A stretch of 64,000 nt of DNA, from assembly GCF_051903065.1 (NCBI RefSeq), contig NZ_CP178438.1; one strand, written 5' to 3'. A program made the position numbers and the translations under genes. The DNA comes from Escherichia coli. GTDB taxonomy: Bacteria; Pseudomonadota; Gammaproteobacteria; Enterobacterales; Enterobacteriaceae. The notes under the pieces are model-generated. The model was given only the letters and a program-made list of their open reading frames with translations, had not been told where the DNA came from and ran no database searches. Shown here one piece after another: positions 17,781 to 24,575 of the stretch (the stretch's first letter is position 1; each line of letters begins with the position of its first letter).

Positions 17781-18695
17781 TTATTCATAGATAAAAGTGA
17801 CACCAATGACTGACTGGACGGTTCCGGCTGAAACCTTGTTTCCTGTTTGTCCATAGGTTGCGCTTAAACCCAGAGGTACTTTGCTTTTATTTACTGTCCC
17901 CAGGGAGACATTTTCTCCCGTAGCCAGTATTTTTCCATTACGCATCAGAGAGACACCCACTCCCGATGCTTTTGTTGCATCTGGTGCTGTGTTAGCAAAC
18001 ACTTGTCTAGCACTGTCAGTGGTAGCACCCGAAAGATAAAATGAGAGCTTTTGTTCACTTGAGCAATATACGCCAAGGGGGATTTCTGCGCTTCCAGGAA
18101 AGTCCGGGAGATTCACGGTGACATTACGACTATCAACAGTGCAGCCGCCTGTTGGCATAACAACACTGTTATTTGAAATAATATTCCACGTAAAATTACG
18201 CGGATTTCCGCTTCCTAACGTGGCAATTTTATACATATGAATACGGGCAATAACTTCCCCGGCTTTTATGACAACTCCACCGGCCGCCCCGACTGGGGTA
18301 ATATAGAGTTTTAACGGTAATGGCATCGGTGTCTTATCACCAATATCCAATACGTTTGTATTTGTCGTCAACGGGAAGGGGTAGGTCACATTATTCCAGT
18401 ACAGCGATCCTTTATATGACTGTAGAGAGCCTGCGAAAGCTGAGCCTTGTACCAGGTTTATATGATCAGTGTCGTACCAGCCGCCGTAATCATTCCAGCA
18501 ACTTATATGCTGAGACAAGTCTACAACCAGATTCTGGCCCGGCTGTATTACAGGGTCGAGATTAACATAAACAGAGGTTGTACCAGCTCCAATACTTGAC
18601 CCGCCATCGACATTACAACTGAAGGCAAAAACTTTGCCTGCCATTAATAGAAGATAAATACCGAACAGGACCTTTATACTGATTGTTTTACCCAT
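17781..18695 (-). CDS. ydeQ: Fimbrial tip adhesin, FimH-like (YdeQ/FmlH-type)
   Basis: 304-aa ORF with signal peptide; last gene of the chaperone-usher operon. Confidence 0.8.
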
Positions 18696-18754
18696 GATAT
18701 ATCCTAAGGTTAAAAAATTGATTTAAAAAGAAGGCTAAGAAAATCGAATCGACG

Positions 18755-19258
18755 TTATTGCCAGGTGTAGATCACATTGATTAGCGCCTCGATCGTTCCC
18801 TGGCTTGCATTTCCATTCACCGTGATAGCTCTTGCCTTAAGTGGAAACTGTGCATTACGAGTGATCTCATCAACAATAACCGTTTTGCTATCGCCATTTT
18901 TTAACGTCGCATCCTGGTCATCCCTCAGCTCTATCTGAATATTTTCGGCAGTACCTTCATTTTTGTAATAACCCGTATTGTCAGTTGAACCTGTCACGAT
19001 TGCCGTCACTGCACTTGTTTCAGCCGGACAATCGGTTAATGACAAAGTAATATTGTGCCAGCTAGATGCAGAACCAGGTTGTTGCAGATTGCGCGTATAA
19101 AGATCCCCGAGATTAACGTTAGCTTCTTTGGTTTGAATAGTGCAGGGTTTAGCGACTACCCGACCATTAACAGTGATAGTGACATCGGCGGCCTGGAGAG
19201 TTGCTGTGAATAACGCGCAAAACGTAGCTAACAGGAACCTCTTGTGAAGTCTTTTCAT
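18755..19258 (-). CDS. ydeR: Fimbrial minor subunit
   Basis: 167 aa, signal peptide, pilin-like. Confidence 0.8.
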   Translation of the reverse strand: MKRLHKRFLLATFCALFTATLQAADVTITVNGRVVAKPCTIQTKEANVNLGDLYTRNLQQPGSASSWHNITLSLTDCPAETSAVTAIVTGSTDNTGYYKNEGTAENIQIELRDDQDATLKNGDSKTVIVDEITRNAQFPLKARAITVNGNASQGTIEALINVIYTWQ

Positions 19259-19270
19259 ATCTGACTCTGA

Positions 19271-19801
19271 TTATTGAAATTCAAGGGTAAAGGTTGCCGA
19301 AGCCCTCACCAGTCCCGGATTGACGGACTTCTGAGTTGACTTCAGACGAGCGGAGTAAGGCAAAATATTGTTCTGTTCTGGTACCAGTGGGATCCACTGC
19401 ATCCCGGCATGAAGGTCATTCAGTTTCACCGGACGCATATTTCCGTCCAGTATTTCTATACCTAAACCGGAGGCCGTATTGCTTCCCTCATCCAGTTTCA
19501 ACAGAGTATTATTTTCTGCATCCTCAATACCGTTAAATGCAACCCGAACCCCCGTTGTCCCTTTGCTGCATTCACTTAACGTAATCTGAAAAGGGACGGC
19601 TGGACTTGTGCTACCGGTCGTTGGAAATTGTCTGGCACTGTTTTTTTGGAGATCTACGGTAAAATTAAGCGAATCCGATGAGACTGTGCAGCCATAATCG
19701 AGGACGCGCCCGCTAATTTTAATAACGCTATCTGCGGATAAAGCAGAATAGGTGGTTAACCCCAGACATAAACCGAGGAAAATAACGTTATTGTATTTCA
19801 T
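19271..19801 (-). CDS. ydeS: Fimbrial minor subunit
   Basis: 176 aa, signal peptide, pilin-like. Confidence 0.8.
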   Translation of the reverse strand: MKYNNVIFLGLCLGLTTYSALSADSVIKISGRVLDYGCTVSSDSLNFTVDLQKNSARQFPTTGSTSPAVPFQITLSECSKGTTGVRVAFNGIEDAENNTLLKLDEGSNTASGLGIEILDGNMRPVKLNDLHAGMQWIPLVPEQNNILPYSARLKSTQKSVNPGLVRASATFTLEFQ

Positions 19802-19814
19802 AATCTCTTGTTCC

Positions 19815-22466: not shown

Positions 22467-22507
22467 TATTAATTCCGATTGAGTTTATTATTAATTAGGT
22501 CACTGGC

Positions 22508-23227
22508 TTACTGCATGGTTGCCTTAATACGCGGAGTTAATGCGCCGTAATCATTGATCGTCTGAAAACTGATATCCCCGGTGGCAGCATGCGGGATATC
22601 CACCGACACTTCACCTTTTGGCGGCACCATGGTGTTTGGGAGATTGCTATTTCCTGCTTTCATATTTGTTACGGTAATGAAGTAGGGCGTTGGATTAATA
22701 AGAGTGAGTTTGCTACCGCTGCGACGAAACCGAAGCATTGCAGGCGCTTCTTCAGGTGCCATTGCCAGGTTCGTGGGGCGATAAAACATTTTTATGCGGC
22801 TAATAATTGCCAGCTGTAATGTATTCTCATTCTTCTGGTCTTTTTCCATAGCAGGAATAGCTTTAACATTCACCCAGAACAGGCTTTCACGGTCGCCTGG
22901 TAACTGATGATTAGTGGCGTTGATTATCCGCAGCGTATTCTCTTTTTTACCTTGCATGGAAAAAAGCGGTGGGGTAATGACAAACTGGGTGTCTTTTTGG
23001 TCACCTGCATTTTCTATCCATGACTGAATGAGATAGACACTGGCAGGATCATTATTCGTGACAGGCAATAAAACCTGTTTCTGGTTTGCCGGATAAATTA
23101 CCCGAGTCGCACCCAGTGCGACAGCTGCGTTGGCAACGGTGCTATGGCAAGCAAAGAGCAATAAAAGTAACACTGTCGCCATAAAGGAAATAGAGTAGGG
23201 GGTACGCGTAGTTTGCATCTGATGCAT
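22508..23227 (-). CDS. Periplasmic pilus chaperone (PapD/FimC-like)
   Basis: 239-aa ORF with signal peptide and the chaperone motifs RVIYPA ... LIQSW. Confidence 0.8.
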   Translation of the reverse strand: MHQMQTTRTPYSISFMATVLLLLLFACHSTVANAAVALGATRVIYPANQKQVLLPVTNNDPASVYLIQSWIENAGDQKDTQFVITPPLFSMQGKKENTLRIINATNHQLPGDRESLFWVNVKAIPAMEKDQKNENTLQLAIISRIKMFYRPTNLAMAPEEAPAMLRFRRSGSKLTLINPTPYFITVTNMKAGNSNLPNTMVPPKGEVSVDIPHAATGDISFQTINDYGALTPRIKATMQ

Positions 23228-23578
23228 TCTCCATGTGTTAAGAGGATAAGCGGGAAAACCGTTACATCAGACAATCGGTAAATGTTGCTAATACATTGGC
23301 GAGTCGCCGGGTTTCCAGACTTAATGCGTTTGTAATAAATGTTGGTTCTCTTTTAATAGGAAAACCTTGCTACAAAGTAAATATTTTAAATAACAGTAAG
23401 TTTAACTACTGTTGTTTATTGATAGTTTAGATATTATGTGATTTTTCATAGCGCTCCAAATACAAACTACTCCTCATTAATAATGAGATTCACATTGGTG
23501 AATTGCTCGGGTGTGCGTAGCCATGCCACACACACCCTGTTTCAATTTCAGATGACGTATAGCCACCTTAAGATTGAA

Positions 23579-24142
23579 TTATAGATATTGAACTTTGAAG
23601 GTCGCATCTGCGTTTGCAGTACCAGCTACGGACTGCCCGAGTGCAATATAACGAGCCTGGAACGGCAGTATATTCGTGCCATCAATCAAGTCAGTTTTAG
23701 CGCTAAAAGTGGCACCATCAAGTGTTAATACCTCACCCGTACGGTCTAAAATTTGGATACCGACATTTTGGGCAGAGCCTGCCGCTGAACTCTGCAGCGC
23801 TAACGTATCGTCATTACTGGTGACAGTAGTACCCAGGAATGCAACAGCTGCATTACTGGAAACATTGGTATCACAATCATTCAGCTTGATATTGAAGCCA
23901 ACGGCGGAGCTGAGGTCACCCGCTTTAGCCAGGCGAGAAGAACGAACCTGACCCAGCTCAACCGTTTGGTTCATTGATTCGGAATCAATCGCACAAGCGG
24001 CATTTACCACTTCACCTTTAAAATGAATAACACCGCCATTAACAGTGGTCGTTACTGATTCATCACCCTCGGCTGCGCTTACCGCAGCAGACGACATCGC
24101 CAACACAGAAACGACAATCATACCAACATGTTTGAGTTTCAT
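23579..24142 (-). CDS. Major fimbrial subunit (FimA-like)
   Basis: ORF to 24190; probable start at [23 protein letters not shown] (signal peptide); C-terminal pilin motif ...ATFKVQYL. Confidence 0.75.
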
Positions 24143-24575
24143 AATTCTCCAAAATTTATATTTAAGTAGCTGAATAAAGAGAGTTAACAATTAAGTCATT
24201 CTGTTATTGCTTATAAAACAAGAATCATTCTTGATTGGTTGTTGCCCTGAGAATATAGTTTCCAGGGTTATTACATTTCACGAAGAACGAGAATATCTTT
24301 AAATCACAAGGACACCTAATCACAACAAGTTTATTGCTGCACTTGTTGAAGAGAGTATTTGCAAAAACATTTTATGTCGCTAAATAACATGACGATTTCA
24401 TTATGCATGTTATTTATAAACCGTGACTAAACAGAATATTATTGCGAACAAGGGAAGTGTCAGGAAAGGTCAAGGGCTACTAACGGTTTATATGGCTATA
24501 AATCATTAGCTATAGTTAATGTTTGCCTGGTGTAACTAACACCGAATTGCTCTAAAAAGATAAGTGCAGGGTTTA

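Follow-up and report, generated by a model that had tools for sequence, protein, structure and literature searches.

The 64,000-nucleotide stretch of Escherichia coli DNA analysed here (the window) carries, on its minus strand, what is almost certainly an intact allele of the F9 (Fml, Yde) chaperone-usher fimbrial operon, the closest E. coli paralogue of type 1 fimbriae. The operon lies between ydeP on its 3′ side and hipBA on its 5′ side, which is the chromosomal position of f9 and corresponds to the flanks described for it (PMC3966885). The intact F9 operon is already known from Wurpel et al. 2014 and other publications, and the locus is real but ordinary: roughly two in three E. coli strains have it, while K-12 has lost half of it. 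Beyond correct annotation, its importance is slight.

Gene content and relatedness of the operon

Six ORFs run in the same orientation on the minus strand, none of the six being interrupted by an internal stop or frame break (ORF list), and encode, in operon order, the major subunit, a PapD-like chaperone, the usher, a FimF-like and a FimG-like subunit and a two-domain FimH-like adhesin. This arrangement matches the F9 gene order as defined in PMC3966885, and PGAP reports all six genes as intact in a genome that is 100% identical over the operon stretch. An initial sequence-only reading had proposed six co-oriented minus-strand genes without frame breaks, including an 883-aa usher, which the ORFs and Pfam domains confirm; the signal peptides it attributed to all six products are visible by eye at each of the six N-termini. 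Its coordinates correspond to existing ORFs, two of which had been over-extended at the 5′ end. The maximal ORFs of the chaperone (22508-23227, 239 aa) and of the major subunit (23579-24190, 203 aa) begin upstream of the start codons annotated in the identical genome, which are located at 23218 for the chaperone and at 24142 (ATG) for the major subunit, and the annotated lengths (236 and 187 aa, respectively) are those of the CFT073 proteins. The upstream untranslated region extends over 24143-24575 and not, as had been read, over 24191-24575, position 24190 being an upstream TTG.

The major pilin, encoded at 23579-24142 (minus strand; Pfam Fimbrial, 6e-31), is identical to the F9 major subunit of CFT073 at 184 of 187 positions and to FimA at 122 of 181 aligned residues. 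The PapD/FimC-like periplasmic chaperone (22508-23218, minus strand; PapD_N 8e-40, PapD_C 5e-12) shares 232 of 236 residues with its CFT073 counterpart and keeps the FimC motifs GATRVIYP and NVKAIP. The Arg and Lys of these motifs anchor the subunit C-terminus in FimC and PapD. The full-length outer-membrane usher (19815-22466, minus strand) displays its Pfam domains end to end (Usher 1e-199, PapC_N 2e-45, PapC_C 6e-22), with identities of 864/883 to CFT073, 877/883 to O157:H7 and 500 of 873 aligned residues to FimD. It is followed by the FimF-like adaptor subunit YdeS (19271-19801, minus strand; 176 aa; Fimbrial 2.7e-22), identical to CFT073 at 173/176 and to FimF at 76/176 residues, and by the FimG-like minor (tip fibrillum) subunit YdeR (18755-19258, minus strand; 167 aa; Fimbrial 1.6e-10), identical to CFT073 at 164/167 and to K-12 FimG at 95/167 residues and named FimG by PGAP in the identical genome. 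The pilins end in the C-terminal β-strand motif with its penultimate aromatic residue. Together with the N-terminal, pore and C-terminal domains of the usher and the two-domain chaperone, these C-termini place the system in the FimD/FimC-like group of the chaperone-usher pathway.

The tip adhesin FmlH/YdeQ (17781-18695, minus strand) is a 304-aa precursor comprising a 24-aa signal peptide, a lectin domain and a pilin domain. Pfam assigns FimH_man-bind (6e-78) to it, and Fimbrial with a match (2e-4) that scores 22.1 bits, short of the 25.6-bit cut-off. The sequence-only reading had pointed to FmlH, and the lectin domain, residues 25-184, is indeed identical to FmlH in PDB 6AOW at 160/160 positions and likewise in 5LNE. 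The mature protein begins with FSCN..., just where the chain in the FmlH crystal structures has its residue 1, and the pocket residues F1, Y46, D53, K132, N140 and R142, whose roles in ligand contact have been described (PMC5866590), are all present. The precursor is identical at 299/304 positions to the adhesin of CFT073, at 303/304 to that of O157:H7 and at 300/304 to K-12 YdeQ.

The F9 loci of UPEC CFT073 and EHEC O157:H7 and the Fml locus of UPEC correspond to that of the window in their six genes, in gene order and in chromosomal site, the CFT073 and O157:H7 proteins differing from those of the window by few amino-acid substitutions each. The six CFT073 proteins (c1931-c1936) are of equal length and 97.8-98.4% identical, and the O157:H7 proteins are 99.3-99.7% identical in a comparison restricted to five of them, ydeR of that strain being split by IS1203; the F9/Fml type recognised in the first reading is thereby established. 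The upstream neighbour of the operon in the window is a yneL-like AraC-type HTH pseudogene with a missing N-terminus (24576-24845, minus strand; HTH_18 4e-21), which is also found in O157 and K-12, whereas CFT073 presents an SDR oxidoreductase gene plus LysR and esterase gene fragments instead. This pseudogene is not known to be linked to f9 regulation. The putative regulators located upstream of f9 vary (PMC3966885).

Leader, promoter and intergenic hairpin

The region upstream of the major subunit gene is AT-rich (31-33% G+C), with a 5′ leader of about 250 nt (24143-24393, minus strand; 30.7% G+C) whose length agrees with the CFT073 transcription start, mapped by 5′-RACE 251 nt upstream of the start codon (PMC3966885). 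The f9 promoter (24400-24429, minus strand) comprises a -35 hexamer TAGTCA (24429-24424), an 18-bp spacer and a -10 hexamer CATAAT (24405-24400). It is one base removed, in the -35 hexamer, from the promoter defined by 5′-RACE in CFT073 (TAGTCG, 18 bp, CATAAT; PMC3966885), while the spacer and the -10 hexamer are conserved. H-NS binding and repression were demonstrated experimentally at the CFT073 promoter, which H-NS silences at 37 °C and which is active at 20-28 °C; wild-type strains express f9 at a low level, and only at low temperature (PMC3966885). The AT-rich, H-NS-type leader that had been suspected from its composition holds the promoter mapped in CFT073, and transcription in the window strain would be predicted to start near 24392-24393, some 250 nt ahead of the major subunit gene.

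About 40 nt past the stop codon of the major subunit gene, a 13-bp G+C-rich hairpin without a U tract was identified (23509-23537, minus strand), which is identical in CFT073; the 121-nt stretch that contains it has a minimum free energy of -41.8 kcal/mol (z = -6.4). This element probably acts on the mRNA as a 3′ stabiliser or attenuator, raising the output of the major subunit over that of the downstream genes. The fim operon yields the sRNA FimR2 at the equivalent position. A perfect 11-bp inverted repeat (24381-24391 and 24406-24416) has its arms on either side of the -10 hexamer and the transcription start and is rarer than expected by chance (9 of 1,000 shuffles). In both EAEC 042 and strain Z0117EC0062 one of its arms is broken without a compensating change, and a role as a conserved operator is therefore not supported; a 15-nt inverted-repeat pair (24415-24429 and 24478-24492) has no conserved counterpart in CFT073. 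It appears improbable that the hairpin gives an F9-derived 3′ sRNA or that the 11-bp repeat is the operator of a dedicated repressor beside H-NS. Rfam searches returned only STnc560, far from the operon, over the whole window at the gathering threshold, and chance-level matches only in the two intergenic regions at E values of up to 10.

The K-12 deletion and the distribution of the locus

Comparison with K-12 located a segment of 3,279 bp, from 21042 to 24320, that is absent from that strain. Its loss takes the N-terminal half of the usher, the chaperone, the major subunit and most of the leader (the distal part). K-12 keeps the f9 promoter, the C-terminal usher part (ydeT′) and ydeS, ydeR and ydeQ, the products of the last three being 98-99% identical to those of the window, within the same flanks and behind the same promoter. 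In the K-12 strain TG1, ydeQ, ydeR and ydeS are accompanied by a 5′-truncated ydeT pseudogene, with no gene for a chaperone or major subunit. The gene content of TG1 and the 3,279-bp deletion bear out the earlier claim that K-12 holds a remnant only (truncated ydeT, ydeS, ydeR and ydeQ); of the two observations that would speak against that reading, a stop or frameshift within the window operon and intact genes in K-12, neither was made. The ydeT′-ydeS-ydeR-ydeQ state arose by one 3.3-kb deletion, and K-12 is the derived form.

A near-complete locus, defined as one contiguous match that covers 80% or more of the 7.4-kb query, is present in 3,569 of 5,426 complete E. coli genomes, a count that includes some genomes with point mutations or small insertions and so overestimates truly intact operons. 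The K-12 deletion junction was found in 1,381 of the 5,426 (about a quarter), and parts of the locus in 5,391. The first two counts agree with published data, in which f9 is intact in 60% of strains and disrupted in all those of phylogroup A (PMC3966885). The sequence-only reading was silent on the operon being fully published and on the intact state being the common one in the species.

Alternative readings and predicted function

Type 1 fimbriae (fimAICDFGH) and F9 have in common the chaperone-usher architecture, the order of the genes that follow the major subunit and an adhesin of two domains with the FimH-type fold. Another copy, or a variant, of the fim operon could be suspected at the locus, where the gene order resembles fimA-C-D-F-G-H, PGAP names three genes fimA, fimF and fimG, and the adhesin matches FimH structures with an E value of 1e-81. 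The proteins, however, are 43-67% identical to those of K-12 Fim versus about 98% to F9, and the operon occupies the ydeP-hipBA site rather than the fim site. No fimI gene and no adjoining fimB/fimE recombinase gene were found; tblastn with FimI revealed no remnant in the 360 bp that separate the major subunit gene from the chaperone gene (best E 0.46), and a general repeat search, not specific for a switch, detected only short inverted repeats around the promoter, with no sign of an invertible element. In contrast to the mannose-specific FimH of type 1 fimbriae, the adhesin has the lectin domain of galactose-specific FmlH and would be expected to bind galactosides (PMC5866590). The FmlH lectin match and the protein identities refute the fim reading, whose probability is negligible, and the automatic names fimA, fimF and fimG are misleading at an F9 locus.

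The G+C content of the F9 operon (44%, below the window average of 48%) could suggest that the full operon was acquired horizontally and that the K-12 arrangement is ancestral. Against this, K-12 retains the f9 promoter and an N-terminally truncated usher, fused at one junction where no more than 1 nt is shared, a structure that marks a deletion. Nearly all genomes contain parts of the locus, its site did not differ among the five examples that were inspected (window, 23CRST027, TG1, CFT073 and O157:H7), and the literature infers f9 in the E. coli ancestor (PMC3966885). The truncated usher and the junction structure refute acquisition, which has virtually no probability left. Intact by sequence, the operon might still be cryptic in this strain, permanently silenced or disabled by missense changes and heading for K-12-like decay. 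In about one third of genomes the locus is missing or interrupted, which has come about independently by several routes (the K-12 deletion, IS3-family and IS1 insertions), an IS1 has just entered the neighbouring ydeP, and expression in wild-type strains is restricted as described above. Open frames are no proof of function; the usher differs by 19 residues from that of CFT073 and by 6 from that of O157. Yet the six genes have open frames of the reference length, the lectin domain is conserved at every residue, the promoter is conserved as well, and the same alleles occur in lineages with measurable F9 phenotypes according to the literature, which makes a cryptic operon unlikely, if less so than the two previous alternatives.

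As an intact F9 operon, and by analogy with the established chaperone-usher pathway, the locus would direct the export of all six products via Sec, each pilin then being capped by the chaperone through donor-strand complementation. The usher would build the fibre by donor-strand exchange, starting with the adhesin and adding the FimG-like subunit, the FimF-like subunit and finally the major-subunit polymer. Since the lectin domain is identical to that of crystallised FmlH, a lectin for terminal Gal, GalNAc and Gal(β1-3)GalNAc, the tip should display the same specificity. For CFT073 and UTI89 it has been reported that fimbriae are produced, that low temperature or loss of H-NS relieves repression, and that Gal(β1-3)GlcNAc or GalNAc glycans are bound (PMC3966885, PMC5866590). 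Published roles of F9 include colonisation of the calf gut by EHEC and chronic colonisation of bladder and kidney by UPEC, as well as low-temperature biofilm formation and binding of plant xyloglucan. The window strain represents the complete form, and its lectin domain is identical to the FmlH targeted by designed galactoside inhibitors.

In the adjoining ydeP of the window strain, an IS1 is recently inserted. No complete genome presents the IS1-ydeP junction as a single contiguous match, and six genomes match the whole query only as three joined pieces, with IS1 in or near their ydeP.

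Organization and identity of the operon

The minus strand of window 17781-24190 carries six same-direction open reading frames with zero internal stops and maximal lengths of 304, 167, 176, 883, 239 and 203 aa. Pfam assigns a FimH mannose-binding-type lectin domain to the 304-aa frame (6e-78; Fimbrial pilin, at 2e-4, is under the Pfam cut-off), Fimbrial pilin domains to the 167-aa (1.6e-10) and 176-aa (2.7e-22) frames, PapC_N (1.9e-45), Usher (1e-199) and PapC_C (6.3e-22) to the 883-aa frame, PapD_N (8e-40) and PapD_C (4.9e-12) to the 239-aa frame, and Fimbrial (6.4e-31) to the 203-aa frame. 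All six genes are annotated as intact in the complete genome of strain 23CRST027, which displays 100% identity to window 15323-28900. The sequence-only reading had described six co-oriented genes without frame breaks, including an intact 883-aa usher, and signal peptides on all products. These observations are confirmed. At all six N-termini a basic start leads into a hydrophobic core, followed by a cleavage motif of small residues. Its operon end at 24190 requires correction: 23CRST027 annotation and CFT073 orthologue lengths place the major-subunit start at ATG 24142 (187 aa), so that 24190, a TTG, lies 48 nt upstream of it. By the same evidence, the chaperone begins at 23218 and has 236 aa.

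Sequence identities were counted as identical residues over window-protein length or, for K-12 Fim, over aligned residues. Against F9 of CFT073, F9 of O157:H7 and the K-12 Fim counterpart, respectively, they were 184/187, 186/187 and 122/181 for the major subunit, 232/236, 235/236 and 139/236 for the chaperone, 864/883, 877/883 and 500/873 for the usher, 173/176, 175/176 and 76/176 for the FimF-like subunit, and 299/304, 303/304 and 144/298 for the adhesin. Every F9 orthologue compared, ushers included, equals its window protein in length. The FimG-like subunit (CFT073, 164/167; K-12 Fim, 95/167) is not comparable in O157:H7 because an IS3-family element, IS1203, splits ydeR in strain PNUSAE146131 (locus L008, 1122-2938). 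This insertion inactivates F9 independently, in a lineage customarily counted as F9-intact.

The chaperone retains the FimC motifs GATRVIYP and NVKAIP, while the predicted mature N-terminus of the adhesin, FSCN, coincides exactly with residue 1 of crystallised FmlH. Adhesin residues 25-184 match the FmlH lectin domain (160/160 in PDB 6AOW and ten related entries; 158/158 in 5LNE) and include the full set of ligand-contact residues, F1, Y46, D53, K132, N140 and R142 (PMC5866590). The operon is flanked by ydeP on its 3' side and hipA-hipB on its 5' side, the position reported for f9 (PMC3966885). Together, protein identities, lectin match and position identify the locus as the F9/Fml/Yde fimbrial operon. 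The proposed F9/Fml assignment therefore holds against both UPEC and O157 proteins, and its interpretation as an intact operon is supported.

Promoter, leader and transcript

In CFT073, 5'-RACE mapped the f9 transcription start to 251 nt before the start codon, and the promoter has -10 CATAAT, -35 TAGTCG and an 18-bp spacer; the region is bound by H-NS, expression is repressed at 37 C and F9 pili were seen at 20 C (PMC3966885). The window promoter comprises -35 TAGTCA (24429-24424) and -10 CATAAT (24405-24400), also with an 18-bp spacer. The -10 hexamer and spacing are unchanged across the six lineages compared, and the -35 hexamer is TAGTCG, one base different, in the other five. G+C content is 32.6% over the 433 nt from the major-subunit start to the upstream pseudogene and 30.7% in the gene-proximal 251 nt, against 47.6% in the whole window. 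The earlier suggestion that this AT-rich leader is of an H-NS-silenced type is supported by its homology to the tested CFT073 promoter, and the window leader would probably respond likewise. A perfect 11-bp inverted repeat (24381-24391 and 24406-24416; TAAATAACATG / CATGTTATTTA on the operon strand) flanks the -10 hexamer and transcription start on both sides. Repeats of such length occurred in 9/1,000 dinucleotide shuffles of the leader, and EAEC 042 and strain Z0117EC0062 have changes in one arm that the other arm does not compensate.

A G+C-rich hairpin of 13 bp, which lacks a U tract and is unchanged in CFT073, lies ~40 nt past the major-subunit stop (23509-23537, minus strand), within a 121-nt stretch with a folding energy of -41.8 kcal/mol (z = -6.4). 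It probably stabilises or attenuates the transcript, which would raise the major subunit relative to the assembly genes, as happens in other fimbrial operons. Its position corresponds to the sRNA FimR2 annotation in the K-12 fim operon; the hairpin has no Rfam match. At the Rfam gathering threshold the window yields a single match, STnc560 (59792-60005, minus strand; 281.9 bits), an Hfq-binding sRNA adjoining mgtS/mgtT and dgcZ.

K-12 deletion, distribution and alternative readings

The K-12 TG1 locus is annotated with ydeQ, ydeR, ydeS and a ydeT pseudogene without its N-terminus; chaperone and major subunit genes are both absent. BLAST and alignment map the deletion to window 21042-24320, a loss of 3,279 bp whose two ends have no more than one base in common at the junction. 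Missing are approximately the first 475 usher codons, the chaperone and major subunit genes and, in the leader, the 178 nt farthest from the promoter. K-12 keeps the f9 promoter together with approximately the first 70 nt of its transcript, joined to the usher remnant; an MG1655-derived assembly has the promoter segment too, annotated under ydeT. The claim that K-12 carries only a remnant is thus upheld. Of the 5,426 complete E. coli genomes searched, 5,391 contain some portion of the locus, 3,569 (66%) cover at least 80% of the 7.4-kb query in a single place and 1,381 (25%) present the exact K-12 junction; in the remaining genomes the locus is damaged otherwise, for example by an IS3-family or IS1 insertion. 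These frequencies match a published survey in which f9 was intact in 25/42 genomes and disrupted in K-12 MG1655 and all phylogroup A strains (PMC3966885).

Recent horizontal gain of the operon is refuted by the K-12 junction structure and by the almost universal presence of locus parts. A variant of the fim operon is likewise refuted, as the proteins are only 43-67% identical to their K-12 type 1 (Fim) counterparts, fimI is absent, recombinase genes are missing beside the operon, and the chromosomal site is ydeP / hipA-hipB. The intact F9 operon could, with low probability, be silent or disabled in the window strain, although nothing indicates this. The F9 system, its distribution, K-12 truncation, promoter and adhesin structure are all already in the literature, and the finding is therefore known and ordinary.

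Predicted assembly and neighbouring features

The window strain probably expresses and assembles F9 pili. Following the established chaperone-usher pathway, the products would leave the cytoplasm by Sec export, the chaperone would hold every pilin through donor-strand complementation and the usher would polymerise them by donor-strand exchange, adhesin first, then the FimG-like, FimF-like and, lastly, major subunits. Since its lectin domain is identical to that of characterised FmlH, the adhesin would bind terminal Gal, GalNAc, Gal(beta1-3)GalNAc and Gal(beta1-3)GlcNAc.

Immediately downstream of the operon, a 768-bp IS1 (14555-15322; 23-nt terminal inverted repeats, insA/insB frames) breaks ydeP, an acid-resistance oxidoreductase gene, whose frame ends after 709/759 codons. 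A 9-bp direct target duplication, CCATGCGGC, lies at 14546-14554 and 15323-15331. The insertion is absent from 23CRST027, elsewhere 99.99% identical, and its junction is a single contiguous match in 0 complete RefSeq E. coli genomes. The f9 promoter-to-hipA interval (24576-25115) varies between strains: window, K-12 and O157 carry a truncated AraC-type HTH pseudogene (yneL-like), whereas CFT073 (locus L005, 24286-26610) displays an SDR oxidoreductase gene, a LysR fragment and an acetylxylan esterase gene, with hipA truncated. Between yddA and ydeO (~12153-12707), a truncated sulfatase (ydeN-like) pseudogene stands alone, ydeM not being annotated, while both ydeM and ydeN are intact in CFT073. 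Annotation from 23CRST027 places a large, frameshifted ECSE_1600-family autotransporter pseudogene at ~26915-32898, its ESPR signal-peptide fragment cut off by a further IS1 copy (~31957-32726), and, in the lsrG-tam interval (~42175-43816), a partial IS200/IS605 tnpA adjoining an intact TnpB gene (InsQ-family RNA-guided endonuclease).
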